From positions 5,667 to 69,666 of the forward strand of contig CAYOFQ010000002.1 of assembly GCA_964403585.1 (NCBI GenBank): a stretch of DNA of 64,000 nucleotides. The letters are read 5' to 3'. The translations under genes and the position numbers were made by a program. Positions within the stretch are counted from its first letter, which is position 1, and each line of letters begins with the position of its first letter. The notes below the pieces were generated by a model, which worked only from the letters and a program-made list of their open reading frames with translations, made no database searches and was not told where the DNA came from. This DNA comes from an uncultured Gammaproteobacteria bacterium (GTDB lineage Bacteria > Patescibacteriota > Microgenomatia > JALYQM01). Positions 1-52,959 of this stretch are shown one piece after another.

Positions 1-2155
1 CAATACATTGTTTATATAATTCCGCACGCTCCAACTCAGGAATATATCTCCACTCTCTGTATTCAACACCCTCAAAATACTTATCAACTTCGTTATATCG
101 CTGCATCATTTTTTCAATAAGAAGCTCAATCGGCTGCATAGGTTGCTGATGTACTTCAGATGTGTATTCAGAAATTGCCTTCTTCAAAGCCAAGGCAACT
201 CCAATATAATCAACTACTATGCCAGCTTCTTTATCTTTATATCTTCTATTAACTCGGGTAATTGCCTGCATCAAGGTATAACCTTTAATCGGCTTATCTA
301 TGTAAATTGTATGCAAATGAGGAACATCAAATCCCGTTAACCACATGTCACAGACAATAACTATTTTGAGTTTATCATCAGGATTTTTAAATCTCTTTTC
401 CAATTCTTTGTTACTCAATTCGTCTTGAATTTTTCCTTTATAATCGCTATTACTAGAAATAACAATTGCCATCTCAGGAGCTAAAGGTAAATCCTTCATA
501 ATATTATAAAGATCAACGGCTATCTTTCGAGTCATCGTTACAACCATTGCCTTACCTTCAAGTTTTCTATGTACAAAATGGTATATAATATCCTTTGCAA
601 CTCGTCTCAACCTATCATCCGCACCCACTAAACGCTCTAATTCGCTAAATTTCTTTTTTAATGTTTCCTTCACTTCTTCGGGATGTTCCGAAAAATAATC
701 ATCAAAATCTTCATTGATAAATTCATTCGCGAAATGAAGTGGAATTAACCGGCTATCATAAAAAATTGGAACCGTAGTCTGGTCACGCTCTGAACGATCA
801 ATAGTATATCTGCTAACAACCTTCCCAAACACGAGCTGAGTATTTCTATCGCTAAAAGCTATCGGAGTACCTGTTATACCTAAGAAAGAGGCATTCGGAG
901 CAGCAGTACGGATATTACCTGCGTAATCAGCATATTGAGAACGATGAGCTTCATCTGCTATTACAATTAGATTAGCTCGATCCGTAATCTTATGGTCAAA
1001 ATCAAACTTCTGGATAGTCGTAAAAAGTATTTCGGAACCAGGATAGGACAATTTCTCTTTTAAATCCTCAACGGTAACAGCAATTTTCGAACCTATAAAA
1101 CCTGAACGTAAAAAAGTCTTATACAATTGCTGATCTAAATCATTTCGATCAGTCAAAAATAACAGCATGGGACCAGAAAGTTCATCAAGTTGTCGCACCT
1201 TATTGGTATAAAAAACCATTGACAAGGATTTTCCACTACCTTGAGTATGCCAATAAACACCAATCTTTTTGTTACCTTTCACCGAATCAAGAGTTTGCTT
1301 AATCGTCCTATTAACTCCAAAGTACTGATGATACATGCACATTTTTTTTGTGTATTTTGTAGCATCTTTTTCTGCATCAGCTTCGAATACAATGAAGTAA
1401 TGAATAATATCAAGCAAATGATCTTTATTAAATATACCCTTAGTCAATACCTCCAGCTGATATTTATCTTCATTATTCTCTTCTTCACTTTCGATCCCGT
1501 CCCAAGGCACAAAGAAATCCCATGAGGAAGAAACCGTTCCATGTTTCGCCTTAAAAGAGTCACTAGCTACTAAAACTTGGTTAAAATAGAAGATTTTAGG
1601 AATATCCTGCTTATACTTCTCATGCAGTTGAGTAAAGGCATCAACAATTGTAGCATTAGGATCTGTAGGATTTTTCAATTCATAAATAGCGATAGGTAGA
1701 CCATTAATAAACACAACAACATCTGGCCGTCTTGTTTTCTCAACACCTTGCACAGAAAATTGATTTACAACTAAGAACTCATTATTAAACAAGTTTTTAA
1801 AATCAATCAATTTAACATATTCATTTTTAGTATCTCCAGCTTTATTCCTAAAATGAACTTCGATTCCTTTAATTATCCACTCGTAGGCTTCTTTATTTCC
1901 AAGCTCAATATCTACGTGATGAAATCTCATAAGCAGTTGCACAACTTCGTAAATTTTTTCTTCTGGAATTGACGGATTAATCCGTATAAGCGACCGAGTC
2001 AATCGTGATTTTAGAATTACATCACGATAATCCTCCCGCTCAGGTGCAACCCCTCCAGGAGCAATATCAGGCCCATATGCATACTCATACCCAAGCTGCT
2101 TAAACCAACCTAATAATGGCTGTTCAGACAATGTATCTTCATTCAACTTACTCAT
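1..2155 (-). CDS. hsdR: Type I restriction enzyme R subunit HsdR (partial; C-terminus lies beyond window start)
   Basis: Minus-strand frame is open from ATG at 2155 to the window edge. There is no stop, so it is absent from the ORF track. My own translation gives N-terminus MSKLNEDTLSEQPLLGWFKQLGYEY (HsdR N-terminal domain), Walker A HTQGSGKSLSMVFY near 1200-1260 and a DEAH box IVIADEAHRS near 930-960. The ATG sits 2 nt after the hsdS stop. Confidence 0.85.
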   Translation of the reverse strand, partial: MSKLNEDTLSEQPLLGWFKQLGYEYAYGPDIAPGGVAPEREDYRDVILKSRLTRSLIRINPSIPEEKIYEVVQLLMRFHHVDIELGNKEAYEWIIKGIEVHFRNKAGDTKNEYVKLIDFKNLFNNEFLVVNQFSVQGVEKTRRPDVVVFINGLPIAIYELKNPTDPNATIVDAFTQLHEKYKQDIPKIFYFNQVLVASDSFKAKHGTVSSSWDFFVPWDGIESEEENNEDKYQLEVLTKGIFNKDHLLDIIHYFIVFEADAEKDATKYTKKMCMYHQYFGVNRTIKQTLDSVKGNKKIGVYWHTQGSGKSLSMVFYTNKVRQLDELSGPMLLFLTDRNDLDQQLYKTFLRSGFIGSKIAVTVEDLKEKLSYPGSEILFTTIQKFDFDHKITDRANLIVIADEAHRSQYADYAGNIRTAAPNASFLGITGTPIAFSDRNTQLVFGKVVSRYTIDRSERDQTTVPIFYDSRLIPLHFANEFINEDFDDYFSEHPEEVKETLKKKFSELERLVGADDRLRRVAKDIIYHFVHRKLEGKAMVVTMTRKIAVDLYNIMKDLPLAPEMAIVISSNSDYKGKIQDELSNKELEKRFKNPDDKLKIVIVCDMWLTGFDVPHLHTIYIDKPIKGYTLMQAITRVNRRYKDKEAGIVVDYIGVALALKKAISEYTSEVHQQPMQPIELLIEKMMQRYNEVDKYFEGVEYREWRYIPELERAELYKQCI

Positions 2156-2156
2156 A

Positions 2157-3326
2157 CTAAACATCTAGTTCCCCTCTTAACAACTTAGGCAGCAAGATGT
2201 CTTTCAATGAAATTAATTCATTATTTTCAACTTCTAACAGTTGAATCTTATGTTCTATACCTCCTGCAATTATTTCAAACTTTGAGATTAACTCTTCTGG
2301 AGGTAATATAACCTTTATATTTTCTAATTCACTTTTAGTAACAGCAGCAAAGATAGAACCAGATCCAAAACTATCTTCTTTTTTAAATACATTTCTTAGT
2401 TGGTAAAACAGAAAACTCTGGCTACCATTTTTATTTCGAACAGATGCTAGGCCTCGACCTAAGGACAACTCTCTATCAGCAATGTTCAGTCTTCCAACAG
2501 GGGCACGCACACTCAATAAAATATCTCCTTTTGCAGCTTTTCTCGGATTATTTGTACAGAAAATTTTATGAGTAGGATAACGCCGTCCAAAATAAGTAAC
2601 TCCCTGATGAAAAGGAAGACCCTTACCTTCTATGTTATAGTCTTCAGATGGTGGAGATTGACCCATTATAATATCTGCTACTTCAGCAAGAGTAGTTAAC
2701 CTCCACGTAGACTCAGACAAGACCTTATTACCTTGAATCATAAACCATTCTTTATAAACTAATTGGGCAACAAGTTCCAGCTTTTCTACAATTTTATTAT
2801 TTAGTACGATTTTTTCATCTAGTCTTGAAATTATCGAAGATATTTTAGACTGTATTCTCAAATTTTCAGGATACTTAATCAATATTTGCCTCAACTCAGC
2901 TTGCCTTATTCCTTCTGCAGCAGTTCCGCTCAATCTCTTAAGTAATTCATGTCTCCCCTCAGCTCCCTGAAGGTAATAGTATAAGTACTTAGGATCCAAT
3001 TTAGTTTTATCAGTCCTTAGTCCAAATAGCCTTTGGCTTAAAACAAGATCTTTTTTTTCAGCTAAATAATATATCTCACCTAAAGGCGCTTCTGATGTTA
3101 ACAAAATATCCCCTGCTTCAAGCTTTTCAGGCATCCACTTCTCATATAAATCCGAACTAACATACCTTATATCATCATGATTGACTATTCTACCTGTCTT
3201 AATATTTTTAGCAGATATCGCTGGAATGCCTTTACTCGACCAATCACCTCCTAATTTTTTAGGAGTTAAACCTCTATGATCAATTATCAATTCCATTAGA
3301 TTATCAAGTCTATCTTGTTTCCACAT
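2157..3326 (-). CDS. hsdS: Type I restriction-modification specificity subunit HsdS
   Basis: 389 aa with two target-recognition-domain halves. C-terminal conserved helix ISLKDILLPKLLRGELDV is typical of HsdS. It is positioned between hsdM and hsdR on the same strand. Confidence 0.85.
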   Translation of the reverse strand: MWKQDRLDNLMELIIDHRGLTPKKLGGDWSSKGIPAISAKNIKTGRIVNHDDIRYVSSDLYEKWMPEKLEAGDILLTSEAPLGEIYYLAEKKDLVLSQRLFGLRTDKTKLDPKYLYYYLQGAEGRHELLKRLSGTAAEGIRQAELRQILIKYPENLRIQSKISSIISRLDEKIVLNNKIVEKLELVAQLVYKEWFMIQGNKVLSESTWRLTTLAEVADIIMGQSPPSEDYNIEGKGLPFHQGVTYFGRRYPTHKIFCTNNPRKAAKGDILLSVRAPVGRLNIADRELSLGRGLASVRNKNGSQSFLFYQLRNVFKKEDSFGSGSIFAAVTKSELENIKVILPPEELISKFEIIAGGIEHKIQLLEVENNELISLKDILLPKLLRGELDV

Positions 3327-3401
3327 ATACTAAACCCTTATTAAATTTGACTTATATCCACATTTTGCATATAATTAACATATAACGATGACTGGATAAG
3401 C

Positions 3402-3914
3402 CTAAGGTTTCGACCGACCGCTGATGCCAGTCGTTTTTTTGACATATTTTAAGCTCATTTTGAGCTTATCCAACGTTACTATATATTGAGCATACTTTCT
3501 CAATAAACTGGAATAATGCCTATTAGGCGTAATTACCTTCAAAAGCTTATTCTTACCAACTAAATGCTCAACTAAACAGTGAAAATCTCCATCATTAGAT
3601 ACAATTATCGCCTTTTCATAGTTTTCAAGCTCAATCATAGTATGTAAAACAAGCTCAGCATCAACATTCCCCTTCACAACTCCAGTTTTCAAAGTTAAGG
3701 TAGGCTTCAAAATGACTATATACCCCATCTCTTGTAAATGTGTATAAAGCTTTTCATTATCAGCTTTAAATCCGATAAAAACAAATGCTTTTTCGATCTT
3801 ATATTTATTTTTTAGATACTGACGAAACTTTCGCCAATCCAATTCCCAACCTTCAGATCGAACTCCTAAATTGAGATTTTGGCTATCTATAAATGCATAA
3901 TTCTCTTTACTCAT
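3402..3914 (-). CDS. NYN/LabA-like (PIN-fold) predicted nuclease inserted in the R-M operon
   Basis: 170 aa. Motifs AFIDSQNL (N-terminal Asp) and DAELVLHTM...IIVSNDGDFHCLVEHL match the NYN-domain acidic core. Its start overlaps the hsdM stop (3911-3914). Confidence 0.65.
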   Translation of the reverse strand: MSKENYAFIDSQNLNLGVRSEGWELDWRKFRQYLKNKYKIEKAFVFIGFKADNEKLYTHLQEMGYIVILKPTLTLKTGVVKGNVDAELVLHTMIELENYEKAIIVSNDGDFHCLVEHLVGKNKLLKVITPNRHYSSLLRKYAQYIVTLDKLKMSLKYVKKTTGISGRSKP

Positions 3915-5704
3915 AACTCAAATCCTAAAGTTTTCAAATTCTTTCGTATCTCTTCTTCTAGTTGTCTCGATTTAGCAAAGTCAGCAGATAAACTCTTCGT
4001 CAACTCCGACATTTTTTCTTCATATGAAATACCGTCATCTTCTTCCTCCGCAATCTCAACATATCTCCCTGGAGTCAACACATAACCATTTTCAGCAATC
4101 TCAGAAAGAGTTACTGATTTACAGAACCCAGCTACGTTCTCATAAGTACCCACTTCACCTCTCCAAGCTCTCACAGTATCAGCAATCTTCTTAATTTGCT
4201 CATCATTAAATATCACTTGCTTCCTCGAAATTTGCTCGAATAGATCCTTGGCATCAATAAACAACGTTTCTCCAGCTCTATTTCGAAACCTTCCAGAAAC
4301 TTTATTCTTAGTCATAAACCACAAAGAAACAGGGAGTGAAACATTATAAAATAGTTTAGGAGGGCAAGCGATAATAATATCAATAAGGTCATCATCGATC
4401 ATCTTCTTACGGATTTCCCCTTCTTTACCACCTACAGCTAATGCCCCGTTAGCCATAACAAAACCAGCCATACCATTGGGAGTTAAATGATGCAAAAAAT
4501 GTTGAATCCACATAAAGTTAGCATTACCGGATGGAGGCGTTCCATATTGAATTCTCGGATCTTTTTCATCTAGTCGATCAGGGTTCCACTCAGCATTAAA
4601 AGGAGGGTTACAAATTTCGAGATCTACCTTTAAGTCGGAAAATTTGTCATCATAATAAGTATTTCCAAGTTCAATCTTTCCATAAATGCCTCTAATCGCT
4701 AAGTTCATTTTACATAACTTAAGAGTAGTTTGATTACTTTCTTGACCATAAATCGCAATCTTTGTAGGGTCTTTATGATGTTCTCGTAAAAATTTACTCG
4801 ACTGAACAAACATACCACCCGATCCACACGCAAAATCCGCAACTCTACTATTTTCAAAAGGTTCAAGCACTTCGACCAAAACCTTAACTATTGAGCGAGC
4901 AGTAAAAAATTCACCTCCACGCTTACCTTCTTCTGAAGCAAACTGACCTAAGAAATATTCGTAAACCCTACCCAATAAATCTTTTTCTTTTTCAATGTCG
5001 TGATCAAAGTTAATTCTAGAAAATATATTTACCAATTCTCCGAGGATGTGACTGTCAAGGCCCACACGAACGTAACTTTTGGGAAGTACCCCAGTAAGCT
5101 GTTCAGGATTATCTTTTTCTATAGCATCCATAGCTTCATCAATGTATTTCGCGATATCACTTGAAGTAGCCTTTGAACGCAAGTATTCCCATCGAGCAAT
5201 TTCTGGTATAAAGAAAATTCCTTTACTTTTATACAAGTCTTTTTCCTCTAGCATTTTCTCTCTTATTTGAGGATCCGGAACATACTCAGGTCTACTAGAA
5301 TCAGCCATAAATTCGACTAATTCATCCCGCCTTTGATAATAAGTGTCGGTAATGTATTTAAGGAATATAAGGCCCAAAACAATATGCTTATAATCGGAGG
5401 CATCAATTGAGCCACGCAGCTTATCTGCAGCGGACCAAAGATCATTCTCAAAATTTATATCTTTGTCCTTATTGATCTCTTGAGTAAGTCTTTTTGCCAT
5501 TTTGGCTGTTTCTAACTGAGCAACACTCACTCTAGATTGAAGTTCACTTGGCAAAGTATCCACTCGAATAAGGTATTTCTTACCTACCTCTTTGATTAGC
5601 ACCTCTCCAGCCTGTATTTTACCTTGTAACTGTTTTTGTATAGCTTGTCGCGACACACCAAGTATCCGTGCAAGGTCATTAATGGTGATATATTTTTCTT
5701 CCAT
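3911..5704 (-). CDS. hsdM: Type I R-M N6-adenine DNA methyltransferase HsdM with extra N-terminal HTH domain
   Basis: 597 aa. HsdM_N-like region NDLWSAADKLRGSIDASDYKHIVLGLIFLKYI, motif I FACGSGGMF and motif IV NPPF (EICNPPFNAEW). The first ~85 aa, ITINDLARILGVSRQAIQKQLQ, form a MerR/excisionase-type helix-turn-helix that canonical HsdM lacks. Confidence 0.9.
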   Translation of the reverse strand: MEEKYITINDLARILGVSRQAIQKQLQGKIQAGEVLIKEVGKKYLIRVDTLPSELQSRVSVAQLETAKMAKRLTQEINKDKDINFENDLWSAADKLRGSIDASDYKHIVLGLIFLKYITDTYYQRRDELVEFMADSSRPEYVPDPQIREKMLEEKDLYKSKGIFFIPEIARWEYLRSKATSSDIAKYIDEAMDAIEKDNPEQLTGVLPKSYVRVGLDSHILGELVNIFSRINFDHDIEKEKDLLGRVYEYFLGQFASEEGKRGGEFFTARSIVKVLVEVLEPFENSRVADFACGSGGMFVQSSKFLREHHKDPTKIAIYGQESNQTTLKLCKMNLAIRGIYGKIELGNTYYDDKFSDLKVDLEICNPPFNAEWNPDRLDEKDPRIQYGTPPSGNANFMWIQHFLHHLTPNGMAGFVMANGALAVGGKEGEIRKKMIDDDLIDIIIACPPKLFYNVSLPVSLWFMTKNKVSGRFRNRAGETLFIDAKDLFEQISRKQVIFNDEQIKKIADTVRAWRGEVGTYENVAGFCKSVTLSEIAENGYVLTPGRYVEIAEEEDDGISYEEKMSELTKSLSADFAKSRQLEEEIRKNLKTLGFEL

Positions 5705-5744
5705 GACAATATCGTAACATATTAAAATAGAAAGTCAAGTTGCA

Positions 5745-5768
5745 ATATGACAACAAAAGTTGTCATAT
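5745..5768. promoter_or_regulatory. Perfect palindrome ATATGACAAC-aaaa-GTTGTCATAT immediately upstream of the hsdM promoter (candidate operator)
   Basis: 10-bp inverted arms ~40 bp upstream of the hsdM ATG. Minus-strand -35/-10-like TTGACT...TAATAT/TACGAT lie between the palindrome and the ATG. It is a plausible binding site for the HsdM N-terminal HTH. Confidence 0.4.
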
Positions 5769-5776
5769 GAATATCA

Positions 5777-6469
5777 CTATTCGTCCACTCTCACCTCGTT
5801 CACCACATCATAATATGCATGCAAATACGAATTCTCCAACACCTCGCACTTCACCAACCGCAACGGTCGCACCTTCAACAAATCCACCTGCGTATGAAGC
5901 GACTCTCCATCCACCAACGTCGACGTATCCTTACCACCCACCAACACCGCCGCAATCACCACCGAAACATGATCAATCAGTCCTCGCCGCACCCATTCCG
6001 CATTCAACGTTCCTCCCGACTGAATCGTAATCCGATCCACCCTATACTCACGCTTAAGTTTCTCCATTAACCCAGCCAAATCCACTTCACCGTCATAAAA
6101 TAGAATCTCAATATTCGAATATTCCTGCTTCACCTTAAAAGCCGGATGATTTTTATTCGTCGTCACCAAATACAACGTCTTCACCCACTGCGCCAAATAC
6201 GCCACACCCTTTTCATTTAAATGAGGCTTATTATCCAGGATAATAAAACTACAATCAATTTTCTTCGGCGGAGTCGTTCGCTCATTCACCCCAATCTTCG
6301 CCATCACCCGCCCTGTATTTAACGAAAACAAATCCGTCTGCTTCTCCAAGTCATAGTACTGCTGTAACCCTTCCTTAACCCCCACAATCCGCTTAAAATC
6401 CTTATCTACATCCAACTCGTCTACATCCCCGGTGGAAATCTTTCCATCCATGTGATACACAATAATCAT
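5777..6469 (-). CDS. Dihydrofolate reductase-like / RibD C-terminal domain family protein
   Basis: 230 aa. C-terminal ITIQSGGTLNAEWVRRGLIDHVSVVIAAVLVGG resembles the RibD_C NADPH-binding core. Confidence 0.55.
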   Translation of the reverse strand: MIIVYHMDGKISTGDVDELDVDKDFKRIVGVKEGLQQYYDLEKQTDLFSLNTGRVMAKIGVNERTTPPKKIDCSFIILDNKPHLNEKGVAYLAQWVKTLYLVTTNKNHPAFKVKQEYSNIEILFYDGEVDLAGLMEKLKREYRVDRITIQSGGTLNAEWVRRGLIDHVSVVIAAVLVGGKDTSTLVDGESLHTQVDLLKVRPLRLVKCEVLENSYLHAYYDVVNEVRVDE

Positions 6470-6997: not shown

Positions 6998-7023
6998 AAA
7001 ATAAAATTCAAAGTGTAATAATA

Positions 7024-7054
7024 AAAAAGAGCCGTAATGGCTCTTTTTTATTTT
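7024..7054. terminator. Rho-independent terminator (bidirectional position between convergent genes)
   Basis: aaaaAGAGCCgtaatGGCTCTtttttatttt: a GC hairpin flanked by A-run and T-run. Confidence 0.65.
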
Positions 7055-10115: not shown

Positions 10116-11567
10116 ATGAACGAATTAGTTCGGGAAATTGGATATGCACTCCACAGCAGGATAGCGGTGGAAACCCGCCGCGCCCTGGCGCCTAATCAAA
10201 CTCCGGGGCCTCGGAAACTTAATCCGCTACTCGGATGTTTACCGGAAGTCAGCACAGGACTTCTTGAATATATAGATACCGTCGCGCATCAGTTTCCTGA
10301 AATAGCGTTCTATCATGCCGGCGCTGCTATCTGTCAGGTTACCGATCCTGGGTTGGTGCGGCAAGTGTTGGCAGTGCAGCACGAAAAAACCCAGGCCATA
10401 GTTTTCCCGCGCACGGCCATGCGTTCCACCTTAGGCGAAGGAGTATTATTTAGCCAGGGCACCAAATGGCGCAACTCCCGCGAAGCAATGCAACCACAAT
10501 TTCATCACGGGAAACTGGAAAATTTCGCCGATATTGTCCACTCGGTATTGGATGAAACAGTCGACCAACTCAAATCATACCAAGAAACCGGCGCTACCTT
10601 TGACCTTAACAACGCCATGTCCGAAATGACTTTAAAAATCGTTCTGCGATCACTCTTTTGTCAGGACCTACCGCTGCAGGATTACCGTTCCATCATCGAC
10701 TTCACTATTAGATACAACGAGCTTTTTGTAGATACCCTCACTAAATCTCCTCTCTCACTTGTCAATCTGTTACTGGACAACAAATGGGACAAAAACGTCC
10801 GCAAGCTTCACGATATCGTCGAACAGGCAGATATCATTTTCGACCGGCTTATCGATCACCACCTCGAATATCCGCCCGGAACCTTTGACGACCTCTTATC
10901 ACTATTTATGAATATTCAATTTGAAGGACAACCAAACACACGAGAACAAGTCAAAAACGAAATCCGCACCTTCATACTCGCCGGGCACGACACCTCTGCG
11001 CGAGGTTTAACCTGGCTCTGGTACAACCTTTCTCAAAAACCGGAATGTATCGCCAAACTAACAGGTGAATTACAAGCCACCGGTAAAAACGCGCGCGAAT
11101 TAGGTCCGCATGATCTCAGAGAACTTCCGTACCACCGTGCCACCATTGAAGAAAGCCTGCGACTACACCCGCCTTCTTGGGTAAATTTACGCATGGCCAA
11201 AGAAAACCTGGCCCTAAAAAGTTCGAGCGGTAAGGATTATTTCGTCCCGCGGGGTACATACATTATTGTCAGTCCGTATGGCACCCACCGCAGCCCTGCG
11301 TATTGGGAAAATGCCGAACAATTCAATCCGGAAAGATTTCTTCTGCCGAATAGAAAAACAATCCACCCCGGCGCCTTCTTTCCGTTTGGCGGCGGTCCTC
11401 GTCATTGCATTGGCCAGGGCTTTGCTATGACGGAAATGCAGTTAGCAGTAGCACGACTTAATTCCGAATTTGCTATTCAAATAATTACCGGAGAAGTTGA
11501 ACCAATGGCCTCACTTGTGCTTCGAGCTAAAAACCCCATTATGGCTAAAGTAACACAAAAAGAATAA
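10116..11567 (+). CDS. Cytochrome P450 monooxygenase
   Basis: 483 aa. Heme-binding loop FPFGGGPRHCIGQGFA, I-helix AGHDTSA, ExxR motif ESLRLHPP and an N-terminal PGPRKLNPLLG. Confidence 0.9.
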   Translation: MNELVREIGYALHSRIAVETRRALAPNQTPGPRKLNPLLGCLPEVSTGLLEYIDTVAHQFPEIAFYHAGAAICQVTDPGLVRQVLAVQHEKTQAIVFPRTAMRSTLGEGVLFSQGTKWRNSREAMQPQFHHGKLENFADIVHSVLDETVDQLKSYQETGATFDLNNAMSEMTLKIVLRSLFCQDLPLQDYRSIIDFTIRYNELFVDTLTKSPLSLVNLLLDNKWDKNVRKLHDIVEQADIIFDRLIDHHLEYPPGTFDDLLSLFMNIQFEGQPNTREQVKNEIRTFILAGHDTSARGLTWLWYNLSQKPECIAKLTGELQATGKNARELGPHDLRELPYHRATIEESLRLHPPSWVNLRMAKENLALKSSSGKDYFVPRGTYIIVSPYGTHRSPAYWENAEQFNPERFLLPNRKTIHPGAFFPFGGGPRHCIGQGFAMTEMQLAVARLNSEFAIQIITGEVEPMASLVLRAKNPIMAKVTQKE

Positions 11568-17713: not shown

Positions 17714-18094
17714 CTACTCCGCCCAGGGATCGAAATCAGTTTCGGTAAGTTCTACCACTCGCGGATGCTTCTGCAGCTCGGCAAGTTCGACCTCCGAAAC
17801 GTTTTCGAAGAAACATCCTGCATAAGAGACAACCATTTGGTCATCCCTCATCTGGTTGAGCTCAACAATCGCGTCGGGATAGAGCGGCTGCTCCATTCCA
17901 CCGTGATTTATGAACCACTGCTTCTTACCTTCGGCTACAGCCTCGGCGGGAGTTAACGATCGCGGCACGATGATCCAGCCGTGGCCACAAATCAAGGCTC
18001 CAGCATTGAGCGGGAACTCGTCTTCGAATCGCGAGATCACACAACCCCAATAATTTTTGCCGGCGGTCTGATTGGCGATGTTCGATGCGTTCAT
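17714..18094 (-). CDS. Hypothetical protein (GC-rich, compositionally atypical), cargo of the tRNA-associated mini-island
   Basis: 126 aa, no signal peptide, GC about 50% versus about 35% for the flanks. It is preceded by promoter-leader module L5. Confidence 0.5.
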   Translation of the reverse strand: MNASNIANQTAGKNYWGCVISRFEDEFPLNAGALICGHGWIIVPRSLTPAEAVAEGKKQWFINHGGMEQPLYPDAIVELNQMRDDQMVVSYAGCFFENVSEVELAELQKHPRVVELTETDFDPWAE

Positions 18095-18684: not shown

Positions 18685-19401
18685 TTAACTTTTACCGTGC
18701 TTTAAGCACGATGCATCCTGAATTCTATCACCAAAAACAGCAGAAATCCACCCCATAATTTGACGCTGTATATCTGAGCAACTGAACCTAATAGAAAACA
18801 CTCCATAAGAGTGTATATTTTTTCTAATTTTCTGTGAATCAATCTTATTTTTTACTATATAAGTTTTATGGAATTTAGCCTTAGAAATACCCGTTAGTTG
18901 AGACCAAAATTCCCTTGCAGCTTCTATATCTAAACCTTCATGAATCCAAAGTGCACCTCTAAATCTATCTTCAGGGACCTTCGCAAATTGCCGTAACCAG
19001 CCCATCATAAACTCGATTATCCGAGGATCAGAATTTGCGATACCTCCCTTCCCATCGGCTTTATCACCTTCACCCAAATAAATAGCGATACCTGCCAACA
19101 ACCTGTCCCTTTCAGAAATCGCACCTAGTTCATTTTTTGCATGTAAAAATATTTGCTGAGTTTTATTAATTCTGTAGGAACGTTTATTTTCAGCTGCAGC
19201 AAGAGAACCCTTTTTTTGACCGTTAATTTTTGTAGTAATAAGCCGGTTTCTCTGTTCATCAGTTAATACTATATCCCTACACCAACGACTTAATGTGTCT
19301 TTAGAAACTTTAACCTGTAATAAAATCTCATTATAAGAAAGACCTTTACTTCTTAATTTCTGAGCAATAATTCGTTCTTCCAATTTCCCTGAATAACCCA
19401 T
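18685..19401 (-). CDS. HTH-domain protein, possible LAGLIDADG-like endonuclease fold (uncertain)
   Basis: 238 aa. N-terminal HTH (RSKGLSYNEILLQVKVSKDTLSRWCRDI). Segment ERDRLLAGIAIYLGEGDKADGKG loosely resembles a LAGLIDADG motif. It ends 4 nt before the intron-containing tRNA. Confidence 0.3.
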   Translation of the reverse strand: MGYSGKLEERIIAQKLRSKGLSYNEILLQVKVSKDTLSRWCRDIVLTDEQRNRLITTKINGQKKGSLAAAENKRSYRINKTQQIFLHAKNELGAISERDRLLAGIAIYLGEGDKADGKGGIANSDPRIIEFMMGWLRQFAKVPEDRFRGALWIHEGLDIEAAREFWSQLTGISKAKFHKTYIVKNKIDSQKIRKNIHSYGVFSIRFSCSDIQRQIMGWISAVFGDRIQDASCLKHGKS

Positions 19402-20732: not shown

Positions 20733-21872
20733 TTAATCTATATAATCTTTCAATTTTTTAGATCGGCTCGGATGACGCAACTTCCGCAGCGCCTTCGCCT
20801 CAATCTGACGAATACGTTCTCGAGTCACACCAAATTCCTTTCCAACCTCTTCCAGCGTTCGGGATTTACCGTCAATCAACCCAAACCGCATCTCAATAAT
20901 CTTGCGCTCACGATCAGTTAACGTAGATAAGACTTCCCAAATATGTTCACGCAATAAACCATGTGCAGCTTCGTCTTCCGGCAACGGCTCGTTGGCTTGC
21001 ACGAAATCTCCCAGGAAGCTGTCCTCATCCTCTCCAACCGGTTTTTCCAGAGAAGCCGGCTCTTGAGACACCTTAATAATCTCACGGGCCTTCTCGGGCT
21101 CTATACCCATTACTTTGGCCACTTCCTCTGGCGTTGGCTCACGACCCAGGTCCTGCATCATCTTACGTGATGTACGAACAAACCGGTTGATCGTTTCCAC
21201 CATATGCACCGGAATACGAATAACACGAGCCTGGTCAGCAATCGCACGGGTAATCGCCTGACGAATCCACCACGTCGCATACGTAGAGAATTTGTATCCG
21301 CGTCGCCAGTCATATTTTTCAACCGCACGAGCCAAACCAATATTTCCCTCCTGAACCAAATCCATCAAACTCATACCACGACCAACATATTTTTTGGCAA
21401 TTGAAACTACCAAGCGTAAGTTAGCTTCAACCAGTCGGTCATATGCTCGCTTATCTCCCTTTTCCACTTTCTTCGCCAAATCAATTTCCTGTTCAAAAGA
21501 CAACAGCGGAATGCGTCCGATCTCACGCAGGTACATACGTACCGGATCGGTTACAAAACCCTCATCAACCGTTGAAAGCACTTCCAGTTCTTTCTCAAGT
21601 TCCGAAGTACTCTTAACCGTATCTCCAGCCACTTCACTGGAAGTCTCAAACACATCAATCGACTCGGTGAGTAACTTGAGATACAAATTATCTAAGTCTT
21701 CTATGAAATATTCAGGCTGAGTATAGATTTCGAGAATATCATCCTGAGTAACAAAACCTTGCTTTTTACCTTTTTCAAGTAACTTCTTAATCATTCCGTT
21801 AACCACTTTAGGGTTAAGCACGGGAACGTCTTTGGTAACCTCGGCAGCAGGTGCTGCAGCAGTACTAGACAT
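20733..21872 (-). CDS. rpoD: RNA polymerase sigma factor RpoD/SigA
   Basis: Regions 2-4 are present ([61 protein letters not shown]). The track ORF is extended to 21938. The likely start is MSSTAAAP at 21872, with AAGGAG 7 nt upstream. Confidence 0.9.
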
Positions 21873-21946
21873 GCAATACTCCTTCTTTCGGTATCCCCAG
21901 AGAAAAAAGACAAAAAAATGAATTCTCCAGGAATCCAATCACTAAA

Positions 21947-23866
21947 TTACAGCTTTTGCAATTTGCTCAAGCGTACAACAAGCATATCAACTTGCTGTTG
22001 TAAATGCGATATCTCGTCAGCCGTTCCTGAAAGCTCATTTTGCTTGATCTCAAGCGAAAGTACGCGCATTTGCTCGCGGATCATCATTTCTTTCAGGTTT
22101 TTAATAGTCAGGAACAATTCGCTACGCAACGCTTCGTCGCCTTCGGGCTCAATATCAATCAGGAAAATTTCATCAATGATTGGAATAATATCGCTCGTAG
22201 CACCTGCTATAAAATCCTGTACAAAACTCTCGGGATTAGCTATAAAGAAATCGACAAAATGAGTATACACCTCTTTGACCTTTTTGTCATCTATATCCTC
22301 TATCTTCAGCTTTTTCTCAATCCCCTGGACCGGCAGATGCAGGCGCATCAAAAGGGAGATAAAGTACCACTCCATCCGACCTTTTTTTGCCTGGTAGTCC
22401 ACTGCATACCGGTCAACCTCTTTCTGCTTCGCCCGGTTGGACAATTCTTCCAAACTGACAGTTTTAGGAAGCACCGGCCTGGTGGCCTTCGACTGTAGAA
22501 CCACCTTAGCAGAGTCCTTAACTTTCCCTGAATCACCAACTGATACACTTTGTCCTAGTTTAATCAACTCTACCTCTGAAATACCTAAATGAGTACTCAA
22601 TTTCTGGAGATAATGCGACCGTATAATCATATCCTTAATTCGCGAAAGCTGAGGCATTACCTCCCGTATGAAGTCACGCTTACCCACCGCATCCTTCACA
22701 TCGTACCGCTTCATGCCGCTTTGAATTATATAGTCGTAATACGGAACAGCCTGCTCCACTGCATCAATCCAGTTTTGAACTCCCTTACGGATGCATTCAT
22801 CCGGATCCTTACCGTTTTTTATTTGTATAACTTTTATCTCCATTCCCTTCTCTTCAGCCAAATAGATAGCCTTTCTCATTGCCATGTCCCCAGCCTTGTC
22901 CGCATCAAAACACAACAGCAAACGATTACATAATTTCCCCAGCATGGTAATCTGCTCTTCCGTTAAAGCTGACCCTTTTACTGCACACACATTCTTTACA
23001 CCGACACGGAAAGAAGACAGCATATCCATTTCACCTTCCACCAAAATAGCCTCACCTTTACGTCGGATAAACTCCTTCGCCTGGTAAAAGCCAAATAGAA
23101 ACTCCCGCTTATGGAAAATAGCTGTCTCCGCCGAGTTAATATATTTGGCAGTCTTATCCGTACCCAACACACGCCCGGCAAAACCTACTACCTGACCTGC
23201 TTTATCAAACAAAGGGAACATCACCCGTCCACGAAACATATCATAAAATCCGATACCTTTATCACTCTTAACACCCAATCCACCGGCAATAATTTCTTCT
23301 ATTGTAAAACCCTTCTTAAGTAAAAAATTTCCCAAACCATCCCAGCTCTTTGCCGAATACCCCAGCTGAAACAGCTCCGCCACATCATTCTTATCGGCCT
23401 TACCAGCCACAGGAATACTCTCACCAACCACCACACCCCGCTTCTCCAAATAATCCCGGGCTTCCTGCCCAACTTCATGCTTCACCAGCAAAAAATGATA
23501 GTACGCTACTGCCGCATCATGCATTTCATACAAACGTTCCCGTAAATCATTCTCCTGCCGGGACTGTTTACTCTCGATCTTCTGTATCTCTACTCCGGCT
23601 TCATCTGCCAATACTTTTACCGCTTCCGGAAACGTTAGTCCATCATGTTGCATCACAAAAGTGAACAAATCTCCGGATACTCCGCATCCGAAACATTTAA
23701 ATATCTGTCTATCAGGTGAAACATTGAATGAAGGAGAATTCTCTCCATGAAAGGGACACAAACCGGTAAAGTTTCGCCCTGCTTTTTTAAGTTGTATACT
23801 GCGCCCAATATAGTCAACAATATCTATCTTGTCTTTTATCTGTCGGATCTCGGTCTCGCTTGCCAT
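21947..23866 (-). CDS. dnaG: DNA primase DnaG
   Basis: 639 aa. Zinc-binding CPFHGENSPSFNVSPDRQIFKCFGCGVSGD, Toprim EGEMDMLS...DAD, and dnaG-rpoD operon order. TATAAT-like TAATAT 6 nt before the ATG. Confidence 0.9.
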   Translation of the reverse strand: MASETEIRQIKDKIDIVDYIGRSIQLKKAGRNFTGLCPFHGENSPSFNVSPDRQIFKCFGCGVSGDLFTFVMQHDGLTFPEAVKVLADEAGVEIQKIESKQSRQENDLRERLYEMHDAAVAYYHFLLVKHEVGQEARDYLEKRGVVVGESIPVAGKADKNDVAELFQLGYSAKSWDGLGNFLLKKGFTIEEIIAGGLGVKSDKGIGFYDMFRGRVMFPLFDKAGQVVGFAGRVLGTDKTAKYINSAETAIFHKREFLFGFYQAKEFIRRKGEAILVEGEMDMLSSFRVGVKNVCAVKGSALTEEQITMLGKLCNRLLLCFDADKAGDMAMRKAIYLAEEKGMEIKVIQIKNGKDPDECIRKGVQNWIDAVEQAVPYYDYIIQSGMKRYDVKDAVGKRDFIREVMPQLSRIKDMIIRSHYLQKLSTHLGISEVELIKLGQSVSVGDSGKVKDSAKVVLQSKATRPVLPKTVSLEELSNRAKQKEVDRYAVDYQAKKGRMEWYFISLLMRLHLPVQGIEKKLKIEDIDDKKVKEVYTHFVDFFIANPESFVQDFIAGATSDIIPIIDEIFLIDIEPEGDEALRSELFLTIKNLKEMMIREQMRVLSLEIKQNELSGTADEISHLQQQVDMLVVRLSKLQKL

Positions 23867-33103: not shown

Positions 33104-33121
33104 TTCCTTATTCTATTTGAG

Positions 33122-33208
33122 CGGAGAGGGAGGGATTCGAACCCTCGATACCCTTGCGAGTATATTGTCTTTCCAGGACAACGCACTAGTCCACTATGCG
33201 ACCTCTCC
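33122..33208 (-). tRNA. tRNA-Ser(GGA)
   Basis: GGAGAGG acceptor, anticodon arm UUGUC-CUGGAAA-GACAA, long variable arm UAUAC...GUAUC, T-arm GAGGGUUCGAAUCCCUC, discriminator G. Confidence 0.85.
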
Positions 33209-33342
33209 TTAAAATAACTGGGTTGTATCAATAACTATCTGCTTTGATACAAGCCAGGTATTTTAACTGTGGGGTCGTCCTGTAAGGGCGACCTCTCCAA
33301 ACATGCTCCTTATTCTAACACAGATTCAACTGAAAATCTCAC

Positions 33343-33825
33343 CTAGTACAACTTTCGCTCATAAGTAATAACCGGCGTTGTGGAAATAAAAACTTCCGGT
33401 ACACCCTCTTGCCCTAAATTCTCCCCCACCCGCCGTACTCCGTCTATCGTGTGGTCTACAATCCGTCGAGCGACATATTTACTTGTCTGCCACGGATGAG
33501 CATCAAAACAACATGCTAACTCGTAAGCTCTATGTACCAATCGCCCGGTCTTACTCTCGGCGTTTTTACCATAGAAAGCAGTCATACCCCAGGTAAACGC
33601 TGCGCCACCAACATTAATTGCCATTGCCCCTATAGTCGCTGTCCTGGCATCAACCAGATTAAGTGCTGCAGCACCCGCCCAAACCGCATTTTGACCATAT
33701 CCGACTAAACGGACAGGGACATGTGCTGCAAAAAGTATTTTACGCTCATGGCGTTGAAGAAATCCTGCAACCCGTTCTTTTACAGGAGTAAGGAGGTCTA
33801 AATTGTCACGATACTGCTCTAACAT
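33343..33825 (-). CDS. Hypothetical protein
   Basis: 160-aa ORF, no recognised domain. Confidence 0.4.
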   Translation of the reverse strand: MLEQYRDNLDLLTPVKERVAGFLQRHERKILFAAHVPVRLVGYGQNAVWAGAAALNLVDARTATIGAMAINVGGAAFTWGMTAFYGKNAESKTGRLVHRAYELACCFDAHPWQTSKYVARRIVDHTIDGVRRVGENLGQEGVPEVFISTTPVITYERKLY

Positions 33826-33925
33826 AAGGGTAAATTATACCATCCCGGAAAACAAATACGAAGTTCGACAATCCTGACAAAATTGTCATGGACTCCGTTC
33901 CGCATACACATAACAATAGCAGCAT

Positions 33926-36397
33926 ATGCACCAACTCTTCAAACCCCGCATTATAATCTATTGTGTTCTTTTTGCTTCAATGTTGACCATGCCAACACTG
34001 ATTCACCAACCACCGACCGCTGATGCCCACGTCATCAAGTACCCGATTATCCTAATCCCCGGCTTTGCCGGGACTACCCTGAGTACCTCCGACCTGGGTA
34101 CGGTATACGAAGGTGACGACGGGCACGGCGGTATATTTGAACACCACTACCTCGCCAATGAGCAAGTTTGGATTAATACATCCGAAGCAGCCAACCCGGG
34201 TGAAGACGATTATTTTGACGCGCTAAAGATGAAGCCTGACGGCCAAACGCCAGAATCTAATCTATATCCCCGGTTTCCCGTACCAGAAGTCTACCAACCC
34301 ACACTCGAATACTTCCGAACCAAAGGCTATCGTGACGGGAGAGACCTTTTTACTTTTGCCTACGATTGGCGCAGAGATATACGTATAAACAATGACCAGC
34401 TCGACGACCTCATCACCTATGCCAAACAAAGAACCGGACTACCGAAAGTTAATATAATAGCTCATTCCATGGGAGGACTGTTAATTAGACACTATATTAC
34501 CGACGCAACCAAAGCACAAAACATCTTCCGCGCAGTGACACTTGGCACACCGTATCTTGGTTCTCCCGAATTTCTCAAGTGGATGGGCTATGGAGGGTGC
34601 CTGACCAATCTCAACACAGGAGCTCCGTGTATTGGCATACCCGCTTCGGAAACCAAAGATATCGTCCAAAATTTCATTTCCGGCTACCAACTACTTCCTT
34701 CTCAAAAATATTATGATTTTTACGACGGGCACGACGCACAACATCCACGACCGTTTAAAGACACACGAGATATAGATACAAATGGAATCACTGGCGAACT
34801 AAGCTATCTCCAAGTAAAGGAATTATTAACAAACACTGGATATAATACCGCTCTTTTTACACCTGCCGAAGAACTGCATCAGCAAATAGATACAACTCTC
34901 CCAGTAATACTTGGTGGACAATTAACACTCATCGTAGGATCAGGTCAGGCAACTATTGGGCAAATTGAAGAACGTAATGTAGTGAACGTAGGGAATATTG
35001 CAATCAATAAACGCGACATTCACATGATCAACGGCGACGGCTCGGTACCACTTTTTAGCGCATCATTAGACGACAGCACCAACGGTCACCTGCTAACCGG
35101 GAATGCCCAAGTATTTTACACTAAACAAAACCACAATCAACTCCCTCAGGACAGTAATACCTTGGGATTGATTAATCATATATTTACGGGCAATCCCGGA
35201 GACACATACACCAATCCCGCTATTACGACACAACCGTTCCCACTCAATGGATGGTTAGTCTCAGTACATTCTCCGGTAACGCTGGACTTATATGATGAAA
35301 ATGGACTACTCACCGGAACCTCAAGCACAAACATAGAAACTGCTATTCCAAACACGTATTACGACACGGTAGACGACACTAAATATATTTGGGTAGATAA
35401 CATTTCCAACTACTACCTAAAATTCAAAGCCACAAGCGCAGGATCATTTGACCTAAAAATTCGTGAATACAACAACAATCAAATAGTCCAAGCCATCTTA
35501 TATAAAGATATTCCACTAACACAAAACACCATTGTTCAAAGTAGACTTAATACAGATAATTTCATGATACCCATACTGCAGATAGATGCCGACGGCGACG
35601 GAACATGGGAGAGTCTCGTTGATCCGACCGAAACCACTCATGAACACATTGACAACCTCCCACCCACCACTCAGATCACCGTTTCCGGCGAGCAAGGGAA
35701 TCAAGGTTGGTATAAAGACACTGCAACCATCCAATTAGCCGCTGAAGACAACCAAGGAGGCTCAGGAGGGGTAAAAATACACTACTCGGTGAATCAGGAA
35801 CCGATGAAGCAGTACAGCACTCCTTTTCAAATTTCCTCAGAGGGAGTCTCTACTTTAACCTACTATTCCGAAGATCAGGTCGGCAATACAGAAACGCTGA
35901 AAGAGCAACAAATAAAAATCGATCGTACCGCACCTGAAGTACAGGTGATGTTTATCAGCAATCAACTGGTCACGGAAATTGTAGGTAAAGACAATCTAAC
36001 CCCTGTGTCTACAGTGAAAAATACTGACCAAGTAGTAGTAACCGACGAGGCAGGTAATACCACCTCCATAAAACATCAAGCTAAAATAAACAAAGATCAA
36101 ACTAAAATCGAATTAACCACCATCTCATATAATGGCCAAGTATTCTCCCTGACTCCTAATCGATACGAATCCACGTATGAGACACAAAGCGGTACCGATC
36201 CCCTCAAGGAACTAGAACAAAAAATCAGTATTAAAGGTGAAGAAAAACTAACCGCACACTACTCTCAAAAGAAATACAAGACAGTTATTAAAGATAAAAA
36301 CCGCCAAGACAAAAAACAAAGCTATGAGGTGGAAGGCCTACAAACTATTATTCTCGGCACCAATAAAGGAGTAGTTTATACTAGTCTAAACATATGA
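33926..36397 (+). CDS. Secreted alpha/beta-hydrolase lipase/acyltransferase (LCAT/PGAP1-like) with C-terminal Ig-like (chitobiase C-terminal-like) domains
   Basis: 823 aa. Signal peptide, PIILIPGFAGT oxyanion region, nucleophile elbow AHSMGG (GxSxG), and C-terminal repeats TTQITVSGEQGNQGWYKD...VKIHYSVNQEP. Confidence 0.7.
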   Translation: MHQLFKPRIIIYCVLFASMLTMPTLIHQPPTADAHVIKYPIILIPGFAGTTLSTSDLGTVYEGDDGHGGIFEHHYLANEQVWINTSEAANPGEDDYFDALKMKPDGQTPESNLYPRFPVPEVYQPTLEYFRTKGYRDGRDLFTFAYDWRRDIRINNDQLDDLITYAKQRTGLPKVNIIAHSMGGLLIRHYITDATKAQNIFRAVTLGTPYLGSPEFLKWMGYGGCLTNLNTGAPCIGIPASETKDIVQNFISGYQLLPSQKYYDFYDGHDAQHPRPFKDTRDIDTNGITGELSYLQVKELLTNTGYNTALFTPAEELHQQIDTTLPVILGGQLTLIVGSGQATIGQIEERNVVNVGNIAINKRDIHMINGDGSVPLFSASLDDSTNGHLLTGNAQVFYTKQNHNQLPQDSNTLGLINHIFTGNPGDTYTNPAITTQPFPLNGWLVSVHSPVTLDLYDENGLLTGTSSTNIETAIPNTYYDTVDDTKYIWVDNISNYYLKFKATSAGSFDLKIREYNNNQIVQAILYKDIPLTQNTIVQSRLNTDNFMIPILQIDADGDGTWESLVDPTETTHEHIDNLPPTTQITVSGEQGNQGWYKDTATIQLAAEDNQGGSGGVKIHYSVNQEPMKQYSTPFQISSEGVSTLTYYSEDQVGNTETLKEQQIKIDRTAPEVQVMFISNQLVTEIVGKDNLTPVSTVKNTDQVVVTDEAGNTTSIKHQAKINKDQTKIELTTISYNGQVFSLTPNRYESTYETQSGTDPLKELEQKISIKGEEKLTAHYSQKKYKTVIKDKNRQDKKQSYEVEGLQTIILGTNKGVVYTSLNI

Positions 36398-36651
36398 AAG
36401 TTACCAAGCATCTTCCAATTGTATTCGCAAGTATTGTAATCTGGCTCTTTTCACTTGTAACTCAAGCATACATAGATATGGCGGTATTTAAACACGCACC
36501 GGTCTTCCCTGCTCCCACATGTTCAGGAACCGGCTACCCTATTGCCTTGTGCAGCAGCAACGGCACCATAACCATTATCGTATGCCTTTTAAATATTACT
36601 CTTATTTTTGGAATACTTTCCCTTATTCGGTGGATCTATAATACGAAATAA
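36394..36651 (+). CDS. Small membrane protein (85 aa)
   Basis: ATGA overlap with the upstream gene. Two hydrophobic helices. Confidence 0.4.
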   Translation: MKVTKHLPIVFASIVIWLFSLVTQAYIDMAVFKHAPVFPAPTCSGTGYPIALCSSNGTITIIVCLLNITLIFGILSLIRWIYNTK

Positions 36652-36654
36652 CAG

Positions 36655-36738
36655 CGGAGAGGGTGGGATTCGAACCCACGAGGCTCATCACCTAGACGTG
36701 TTCGAGACGTCCGCACTCGGCCACTATGCGACCTCTCC
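36655..36738 (-). tRNA. tRNA-Ser(CGA)
   Basis: GGAGAGG acceptor, anticodon arm GACGU-CUCGAAC-ACGUC, long variable arm, T-arm GUGGGUUCGAAUCCCAC. The 3' half is identical to tRNA-Ser(UGA) at 41983. Confidence 0.85.
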
Positions 36739-36837
36739 TTAATATATCTTGTTCATACCTACTGGAGCCTGATAGGCATGAACAAGATATATTATCGTGA
36801 GCGTCGTCCTGTAGGGACGACCTCTAGCCCATTCTAG

Positions 36838-36910
36838 TGCACTCGACAGGAGTCGAACCTGTAACCGTCAGCTCCGCAAGCTGATGCTCTATCCATTAAG
36901 CTACGAGTGC
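36838..36910 (-). tRNA. tRNA-Arg (anticodon read as GCG)
   Basis: GCACUCG acceptor, D-arm GCUUAAUGGAUAGAGC, anticodon arm UCAGC-UUGCGGA-GCUGA, T-arm ACAGGUUCGACUCCUGU, discriminator A. The GCG anticodon assignment is tentative. Confidence 0.65.
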
Positions 36911-36981
36911 CCATCTTTCATGCCTAAGCACAAAACTACCGTCATATTATAACGCACAAAGCCATTTCGCACAATTGAAGA

Positions 36982-37530
36982 TTATTGAGCGGTTTTCTCA
37001 AGAGGAAACTTCTTCGACACCCATTCTGCAGCCCGATCCACCGCTGAAGTATCCTTGCTGTCTTTCAGGATCAACCGTGTTCCAATTACCTGCTCGATTT
37101 GCTCCCGGGTAGCCGGCTCTCGCAACAATAAGTATATTGACCCGGGGAGACTGGCTTTAGTTCGCGCCACCATAATATCATTACCCCAGCGTTTCTCGAA
37201 CCAGTAGTACAGAAGATCCGGCCAGGCATAAAAGTGATTCCCGTTCTTAATTCCTGTCGTAAAAATTTCATTATCAATATCGTCAGGCGGAACGGTATAC
37301 AATACGTACACCAGAAAAACAAACGCAATCACTACGGCAATGACCAGGAACTCCCGCATAAAAAACAGGATCACAATAGATAAAATTGCCATAATAGTCA
37401 CTGTAGTGAAAAAATCTTTATCACGCTTTTTAAATGGGCGTGAAGGAGATCGCCATTGTAAAAGTAACTTTTTTTCTTCCTCAGGAACAATAGCTACCGT
37501 TGGTTGAGAGGAAACAGAAGAAGTGTCCAT
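36982..37530 (-). CDS. Membrane protein, unknown function
   Basis: 182 aa with two adjacent TM helices (AILSIVILFFMREFLVIAVVIAFVFLVYVLY). Confidence 0.45.
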   Translation of the reverse strand: MDTSSVSSQPTVAIVPEEEKKLLLQWRSPSRPFKKRDKDFFTTVTIMAILSIVILFFMREFLVIAVVIAFVFLVYVLYTVPPDDIDNEIFTTGIKNGNHFYAWPDLLYYWFEKRWGNDIMVARTKASLPGSIYLLLREPATREQIEQVIGTRLILKDSKDTSAVDRAAEWVSKKFPLEKTAQ

Positions 37531-37595
37531 AAGCGAATAAAAAGGATTATACTGAACACAGAATATCAGATGTGCGTAATAATGCGCAAGAGCTA

Positions 37596-39419: not shown

Positions 39420-39518
39420 ACTTCAGTATAGCATAGTGCGGAGAGGATTGGGCGATATTTGAACTTTTCTAAGTCAATCCTCTTGTGCATAAAACAGAAA
39501 AATTCGTAAGATATTATT

Positions 39519-52956: not shown

Positions 52957-52959
52957 AAA

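Follow-up and report, generated by a model that had tools for sequence, protein, structure and literature searches.

Sequence comparison points to a Type I restriction-modification (R-M) system in which the DNA methyltransferase subunit carries its own DNA-binding regulatory domain. The system lies at the left end of a 64,000-nucleotide stretch of contig CAYOFQ010000002.1 (referred to below as the window, by which the whole stretch is meant), where positions 1-5704 of the minus strand read as a complete Type I R-M operon with the gene order hsdM-NYN-hsdS-hsdR. Here, the first gene encodes a methyltransferase, HsdM, the N-terminal part of which is a predicted winged helix-turn-helix (HTH) domain, and it is likely that this protein is the transcription factor of its own operon, autoregulating and probably repressing hsdM-NYN-hsdS-hsdR through a palindrome at the promoter.

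A Predicted Winged HTH Domain at the N Terminus of HsdM

The hsdM gene (3911..5704, minus strand) starts with ATG and encodes a protein of 597 amino acids in which a winged HTH, a linker helix, HsdM_N and N6_Mtase follow one another. Pfam placed HsdM_N at residues 86-228 (90 bits, E = 2.5e-25) and N6_Mtase at residues 240-557 (348 bits, E = 6.9e-104), and the PADLOC MTase_I model matched the protein with E = 5.7e-160. In the translation, the S-adenosylmethionine motif (xxGxGG) appears as FACGSGGMF and the catalytic NPPF motif as CNPPFNAEW, with N366, P367, P368 and F369 invariant in alignment A1. The NCBIfam equivalog for HsdM (TIGR00497) gave 177.7 bits, below its trusted cut-off of 242.75. 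From its domains and gene context the protein is an HsdM, and its sequence places it in a divergent subfamily.

The canonical part of the protein had been predicted to begin at approximately residue 87. This agrees with the start of HsdM_N and with alignment to known structures, in which all ten solved HsdM chains began to align at query residue ∼84-86 or later, corresponding to their own residue ∼9-17 where the N terminus was covered. The closest solved chain, 3khk_A (E = 4.8e-111), aligned from residue 84, and all PADLOC models of Type I methyltransferases whose alignment extends into the N-terminal region began at query residues 82-87. Chains and models taken together, the alignments started at their own residues ∼5-17. 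Given that known HsdM chains and models align only from residue ∼82-87, some 75-80 residues of the window protein are extra.

A Pfam scan of residues 1-85, proposed as a check in the original prediction of a MerR/excisionase-type HTH, returned HTH_17 (PF12728) as the best family, at residues 5-50. The match scored 24.8 bits within the full protein and, with residues 1-68 scanned alone, 29.1 bits, the gathering cut-off being 27. Scores for TIGR01764 (17.3 bits, cut-off 28.8) and HTH_3 (15.5-19.6 bits, cut-off 23) fell short, and a precomputed PF12728 match was present in only 3 of 120 listed homologues. A profile search with the N-terminal domain recovered many 84-85-residue proteins of the candidate phyla radiation (CPR) that are annotated as PF12728/excisionase family (E values of 1e-7 to 1e-11), and a sequence search of the PDB with the same domain gave no significant match.

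An AlphaFold2 model of residues 1-80, built with 20 homologous N termini, had a predicted local distance difference test score (pLDDT) of 80. It comprised a strand at residues 5-7, helices at 8-15 and 19-32, a hairpin at 37-47 and a long helix at 53-77, and the N-terminal topology of the full-length model was the same. The predicted fold is that of a winged HTH of the HTH_17/excisionase (MerR-like) kind, in line with the original prediction. The winged HTH domain thus modeled occupies residues 1-52 (5549..5704, minus strand), with the hairpin as its wing and VSRQAIQKQLQ as the recognition helix of the window protein. It is joined to HsdM_N by a long linker helix, residues 53-80 (5465..5548, minus strand), which DSSP assigned as H53-80 and H53-77 in the two models. 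The linker opens with a conserved TLPxE motif, and neither L51 nor P52 varies in alignments A1 and A2.

The extension is a regular part of the family. Among the 120 best listed homologues, query coverage was about 92-100% (nearly all 98-100%), and 118 were 588-635 residues long. Related loci were collected by scanning one genome per species; 80 were returned, nearly all from Patescibacteria, with a few from DPANN or Asgard archaeal metagenome-assembled genomes (MAGs) and some from MAGs labelled Gammaproteobacteria. The HTH was present in the first 60 homologues read and in every one of the 70 genome loci whose 5' end is intact, and hundreds of homologues of ∼595 residues retain the domain, almost all in Patescibacteria (CPR) genomes. 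When the window gene was compared with that of a 94%-identical relative, locus L081, codons 1-85 differed by 36 synonymous and 7 non-synonymous changes, the same pattern as in the remainder of hsdM (208 synonymous and 31 non-synonymous). By this comparison codons 1-85 are under purifying selection.

Palindromes That Track the Recognition Helix

In 71 of the related loci, the core promoter is adjoined or overlapped by an 18-bp palindrome. The upstream regions, sorted by recognition helix, formed five classes (Q, V, F, H and N), each with its own 18-bp palindrome and all sharing an 8+2+8 geometry. The class Q palindrome, GGTTGTCA-N2-3-TGACAACC, abuts or contains the -35. Its half-site GGTTGTCA accompanies the helix [ST]RQA..QK, while half-site GGTTATCA accompanies SRVAxxK, GGTTAACA accompanies SRVAVFK and similar helices, ACTTAACA accompanies SR[IV]A[IV]HQK and AGTATACA accompanies TRAAINK.

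When at most 3 mismatches in 16 positions were allowed, the motif of the locus' own class was detected in 24/28 loci of class Q, 10/11 of class V, 13/15 of class H and 9/9 of class N, as compared with 0-0.3% of 710 background segments taken from the same contigs and subjected to the same test. Matches to the motifs of other classes were clearly worse. A generic palindromicity score (at least 7/8 pairs) separated upstream regions (51%) from background (15%) only modestly and was set aside, the class-specific motif test being much sharper.

The operators fell into three discrete registers. In one the palindrome stops at the first base of the -35, in another the -35 lies within it, and in the third it extends over spacer and -10. 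In several class H and class N loci the -10/+1 region is covered by an additional site, in most cases a half-site. When class Q loci were aligned on the -35, identity per column was 79% in the 18 nt before the -35, 48% far upstream and 51% in the spacer. No such palindrome was found upstream of four canonical HsdM genes that lack the HTH (L072, L075, L079 and L080) or of the HTH-less family member L056. Such co-variation of palindrome and recognition helix is what would be expected if a transcription factor were paired with its own operator. In one of the canonical genes, L075 (7001-8533, from an Absconditabacteria MAG), conserved motifs are interrupted by in-frame TGA codons, which agrees with the alternative genetic code reported for that lineage.

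The hsdM Promoter and Its Predicted Operators

In the window, a promoter scan identified a -35 hexamer, TTGACT, at 5733..5738 (minus strand) and, after a 16-nt spacer, a -10 hexamer, TACGAT, at 5711..5716 (minus strand) with TG upstream (extended -10); in related loci the -35, at the same register, shows 90-100% conservation. Reading these elements as a σ70 promoter is justified because a primary σ70 gene is encoded in the window (20733-21938, beside dnaG). Given that the -10 ends 6 nt before the ATG, that no Shine-Dalgarno sequence is present in those 6 nt, and that the -10 likewise sits 6-9 nt from the ATG in 46 of the 71 HTH-hsdM loci, the hsdM mRNA is probably leaderless, starting at the ATG.

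The perfect palindrome ATATGACAAC-N4-GTTGTCATAT was located, as originally described, at 5745..5768, directly upstream of this promoter. Its 10-nt arms are 100% complementary and it lies 6 nt from the -35. The coding strand across the palindrome and promoter reads tcATATGACAACttttGTTGTCATATTGCAACTTGACTttc. The arm GTTGTCATAT occurs, at 0 mismatches, only once in the 64 kb. The window has four perfect inverted repeats whose arms reach 10 bp or more, where Markov-1 simulations led us to expect ∼1.1; the perfection of the palindrome therefore proves little by itself, and its significance comes from conservation. The three other such repeats lie at 7022-7050, 52959-52982 and 63670-63698, the first of them, between convergent open reading frames (ORFs), being probably a bidirectional terminator.

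Conservation was assessed against L081. The 40-nt block from TATTCATATGACAAC to GCAACTTGAC, comprising palindrome and -35, is identical at 38 of 40 positions, the palindrome arms are identical and the two differences fall in the 4-nt spacer between them (TTTT versus TTAG). The spacer between -35 and -10 has diverged, and DNA further upstream matches at 39/128 positions, a random level.

Comparison with the class Q consensus predicts a proximal 18-bp operator of the family type, TGTTGTCATATTGCAACT, at 5738..5755 (minus strand), whose final base coincides with the first T of the -35. Of its two halves the left is perfect and the right, which has lost one base, is degenerate. Its register, -17 relative to the -35 start, is common to seven other class Q loci and all class N loci. 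A distal operator-like 18-mer, GATATTCATATGACAACT, is predicted at 5758..5775 (minus strand), 20 bp from the proximal site, in register -37 and with 4 mismatches; here the right half is perfect and the left half degenerate. Counted with +1 at 5704, the proximal and distal sites are centred at approximately -42.5 and -62.5, on the same helix face. The two-site layout is retained in L081, and a similar arrangement of three half-sites is present in L016. Six further loci with the identical helix SRQAIQKQLQ have a single site, GTTGTCA-N3-TGACAAC (TGACTAC in L084-L086), with the first T of the -35 as its final base.

Read against the family motif, the perfect palindrome consists of the inner half-site of the proximal operator and that of the distal operator, the well-conserved half in each case. 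The original prediction, which had taken this palindrome as the binding site, is supported in each of its elements, with a refinement: a palindrome tracking the recognition helix is found at the promoter throughout the family, and the site of the family type is the imperfect one at 5738-5755.

Proposed Autoregulation and Alternative Explanations

In the proposed mechanism, the two HTH domains of an HsdM pair would bind the 18-bp palindrome abutting the -35 and a second site two helical turns upstream. Such a pair would most plausibly be that of the M2S1 methyltransferase, an established stoichiometry (PMC12255303, introduction), with the N-terminal domains facing each other. Bound HsdM would exclude RNA polymerase, and transcription of the operon would drop as methyltransferase accumulates. 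In a naive cell, which has no HsdM, the strong promoter would fire, probably giving a leaderless message with +1 at the ATG; HsdM would be made first and HsdR last, and the operon would then shut down to a set level. Repression is favored because the site overlaps the -35 or the -10 in most loci and because the promoters are near consensus and need no activator.

Several points weigh against autoregulation in this form. The loci that served to define the class motifs were also those in which the motifs were then counted, and the helix classes are probably clades, so that helix and operator could partly have been inherited together rather than having co-evolved. The class Q palindrome is essentially a palindromized -35 (TTGACA), and the exact 18-mer is common elsewhere: when metagenome contigs were scanned for exact GGTTGTCANNTGACAACC, only 3 of 122 sampled sites adjoined an HTH-HsdM gene, and 57 of the 122 adjoined an unrelated gene for a small Cys-rich protein on high-GC contigs. 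For class Q alone, conservation may therefore in part reflect promoter constraints. The proximal site in the window has 4/16 mismatches to the class consensus, and the half-sites of the perfect palindrome are oriented oppositely to those of the family operator. In addition, the full-length AlphaFold2 model (pLDDT 68) is poor, with a catalytic domain modeled too badly for the HTH to be positioned against the rest of the protein, and any geometry of the two HTH domains in M2S1 is accordingly tentative.

The same scan had been considered as an independent route to hsdM loci and was rejected for that purpose, since with 3 of 122 sites the 18-mer alone is not diagnostic. It did bring out an unrelated and apparently unannotated pairing of a palindromic promoter with a Cys-rich protein, in which GGTTGTCANNTGACAACC with its embedded -35 precedes a gene for a protein of ∼90 residues (MARSPHPKKE...SHAWGR.YCP...CRCGEFC...NHARALRRVVDNC) in L089, L092, L118, L141 and ∼50 further metagenome loci.

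Of the alternatives, one holds that the HTH acts on the same sites as an activator, or as a concentration-dependent switch between activation and repression in the manner of C proteins. A site centered near -42.5 could activate instead of repress, since occupancy of this one site, close to class II activator positions, would recruit RNA polymerase; repression would follow once both sites, or the core-promoter sites of other loci, were occupied. The two adjacent sites 20 bp apart are reminiscent of the paired operators of C proteins (PMC12707154, sections 10 and 13). Nevertheless, the promoter is already near consensus (TTGACT and an extended -10) and an activator would be unneeded, the site in most related loci contains the -35 or covers the spacer and -10, which are repressing positions, and a lone site is the rule among loci whose helix is identical. 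We regard activation as unlikely.

It is appreciably less probable that the HTH has some other role, such as tethering the methyltransferase to DNA or binding sites elsewhere, and that the palindromes are promoter architecture (inverted -35-like elements) or belong to another factor. The occurrence of the exact class Q 18-mer at many unrelated promoters, and of TTGACA within it, would fit such an explanation. The palindromes of classes V, F, H and N are, however, unrelated to the -35 consensus and yet track the helix class, GTTGTCATAT is found nowhere else in the window, and the HTH-less L056 is without the palindrome.

A purely RNA-level function, in which the perfect palindrome would be a hairpin terminating the upstream RibD_C-like gene (end at 5777), was rejected as highly improbable. 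The hairpin lies 9 nt past the stop codon and forms in the predicted RNA fold, but it is not followed by a U-tract, the terminator scan made no call and the fold z-score is only -1.6. Moreover, the palindromes of related loci are imperfect, would fold poorly and follow different upstream genes, and within each class it is the sequence that is conserved and not pairing alone.

Finally, the concern that the first 68-85 residues are a mis-called extension and that translation really starts at Met69, where MAKRLTQEINKD... looks like a canonical HsdM start, can be dismissed with near certainty: Met69, the only plausible internal start, is not conserved among homologues, the extra domain is conserved in 70 loci, folds confidently in AlphaFold2 and is encoded by codons under purifying selection, and the -10 box lies only 6 nt before the first ATG.

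Operon and Genome Context

Downstream of hsdM, the operon continues with a gene for an NYN-domain (LabA-like nuclease) protein at 3402..3914 (minus strand; Pfam NYN, E = 1.3e-15, and PADLOC NYN), the start of which overlaps the hsdM stop (ATGA). After a gap of 75 nt follows hsdS at 2157..3326 (minus strand), encoding 389 residues with two target-recognition domains (Pfam Methylase_S in two stretches; PADLOC Specificity_I, E = 5.4e-73). The start of hsdR overlaps the end of hsdS by 8 nt; its first 721 codons occupy 1..2164 (minus strand), and the gene runs off the left end of the window (Pfam HSDR_N and SWI2_SNF2; PADLOC REase_I, E = 4.6e-195). Upstream of hsdM lies the RibD_C-like gene (5777..6469, minus strand), its end separated from the hsdM start codon by 72 nt.

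The order hsdM, variable cargo, hsdS, hsdR was observed in most related loci. NYN, an accessory cargo gene of the operon, occupies the hsdM-hsdS interval in only 7 of the 80 loci, L082-L087 among them, and elsewhere the slot is taken by DUF4145, DUF2321, DUF3800, RVT_3 or genes without an assigned family. To judge from these gene orders, accessory defense genes seem to be inserted preferentially at the hsdM-hsdS junction, which would make it an insertion hotspot. Within the first 7 kb, the best match to a promoter, TTGACT-17-TATAAT (11/12), lies in the NYN-hsdS gap at 3347-3375 (plus strand). It is antisense to the operon, directed toward NYN and hsdM, and could be a chance match in AT-rich DNA or an antisense control element.

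The closest named relatives of the DnaG protein (21947-23866) are found in Beckwithbacteria, Microgenomates and other Patescibacteria, and the host is therefore a CPR bacterium. Further features of the window include a group I intron match (RF00028; 18451-18657, minus strand; 79.7 bits against a gathering score of 50) between two ORFs without a Pfam match (18685-19401 and 17714-18094) and with no rRNA or tRNA nearby. A full-length cytochrome P450 is encoded at 10116-11567 (plus strand; Pfam E = 1.9e-74), which is unexpected in a reduced Patescibacteria genome. Four tRNA-Ser genes with different anticodons and one tRNA-Arg gene lie within 9 kb (33121-42069), and a tmRNA gene is present at 55019-55455.

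Comparison with Known Regulators of R-M Systems

N-terminal fusions of an HTH repressor are established for the Type II m5C methyltransferases M.SsoII, M.Ecl18kI and M.EcoRII (PMC12707154, section 11; PMC2760811; PMC3978073). As in these SsoII-type enzymes, the window methyltransferase is fused N-terminally to a sequence-specific HTH (∼70-85 residues) on a flexible or helical linker, and an operator, here predicted by comparative genomics, lies in its own promoter region and would tie expression to the amount of methyltransferase. By contrast, the SsoII-type enzymes are monomeric Type II m5C methyltransferases with divergent or overlapping R and M promoters, and their binding also redirects polymerase to the endonuclease promoter; the window system has an N6-adenine HsdM of Type I, an HTH_17 winged domain and a single promoter that apparently drives M, S and R. 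Given that there is no sequence relationship to the SsoII-type proteins, the HTH-HsdM fusion is independent and the resemblance is in mechanism only.

The C proteins (C.PvuII, C.AhdI and C.Esp1396I) regulate Type II systems as free-standing HTH proteins (PMC12707154, sections 10 and 13). Points of likeness would be an HTH dimer on palindromic boxes at its own promoter, paired operators for feedback and control within a mobile R-M cassette. C proteins are, however, free-standing and Xre-type (HTH_3), are co-transcribed with the endonuclease and activate before they repress, whereas the window HTH is fused to the methyltransferase and belongs to a different fold class, with HTH_17 as its best Pfam family. 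The original description of the function as C-protein-like thus holds for the logic but not for the domain, which scores below the HTH_3 cut-off.

RptR is a stand-alone repressor whose gene is the first ORF in Type I R-M/DarTG islands (PMC12255303). Both it and the window domain are small DNA-binding modules for an hsdM-first Type I operon, with palindromes overlapping the core promoter and with protein and site conserved across genomes. RptR is a separate four-helix protein that acts on 6-bp palindromes over the -10 in Enterobacteria and relatives (PMC12255303). By that description the window module is set apart, being part of HsdM, winged, associated with 18-bp sites and found in CPR hosts.

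An unfused arrangement was seen on the Mycoplasmopsis arginini plasmid NZ_LR215046.1 (L088), where a 68-residue Xre-type HTH gene (1093-1299) ends 15 nt before a Type I hsdM (1315-2793). The HTH gene is directly 5' of hsdM and in the same frame, as in the fusion, but a stop codon separates the two and the HTH is of the Xre type. It is annotated only as "helix-turn-helix transcriptional regulator" and may be a C-protein-like controller of the Type I system.

No HTH-HsdM fusion of the window kind was found in plasmid and phage collections, this M. arginini gene pair being the nearest case. A search of the representative library with residues 1-85 returned no full-length HsdM, only truncated fragments and proteins with three to four tandem HTH_17 copies, and it was set aside as a guide to family size or to a stand-alone ancestor. 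Likewise, representative and profile searches together recovered no stand-alone orthologue of the HTH next to hsdM, only truncated HsdM fragments and generic HTH_17 proteins. The tandem proteins, of 210-250 residues with three to four HTH_17-like copies, include P0128-P0131, P0134-P0136 and others. A further protein, P0230 (113 residues), has the HTH N-domain fused directly to a DUF3387 segment (PF11867), which we take to be the C-terminal domain of HsdR; if so, P0230 looks like a deletion remnant lacking most of a Type I operon.

Significance

Control of Type I R-M systems is usually described as post-translational, through subunit assembly and ClpXP proteolysis. Dedicated transcriptional control has been reported only recently, in the form of the separate repressor RptR (PMC12255303). 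Full-text literature searches found no description of an HTH-HsdM fusion, although papers beyond the library searched could contain one, and a 2026 preprint surveying CPR hsdM-like genes leaves the HTH unmentioned. The domain is missed by current annotation, which gives most of these proteins no more than the label "N-6 DNA methylase". What appears to be new here, on comparative evidence, is a regulatory logic of the SsoII type that has arisen independently in a Type I HsdM, uses a different HTH fold and is widespread in CPR.

If true, a fused HTH-HsdM with its operator would be a second and simpler solution than RptR. The fusion appears to be the dominant form in Patescibacteria, the tiny genomes of which have few regulators. 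A self-contained and portable cassette would suit such regulator-poor organisms and fits the spread across CPR lineages. The five pairs of helix and operator form a natural series for the recognition rules of HTH_17 winged helices, and since the promoters are σ70-like the prediction is directly testable in Escherichia coli.

A bolder proposal, which we put forward as doubtful but conceivable, is that of a large CPR-wide family of self-repressing Type I cassettes with at least five co-evolved specificities, in which promoter occupancy reports free methyltransferase. If this were true, at least five helix/operator specificities would let several cassettes coexist without cross-talk. M2S1 would choose between chromosomal targets and the operator, so that occupancy could report the free enzyme, and expression would then depend on how many unmodified or hemimethylated sites there are, for instance following replication or the entry of DNA. 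Such coupling would parallel, at the level of transcription, the ClpXP-based restriction alleviation known from E. coli.

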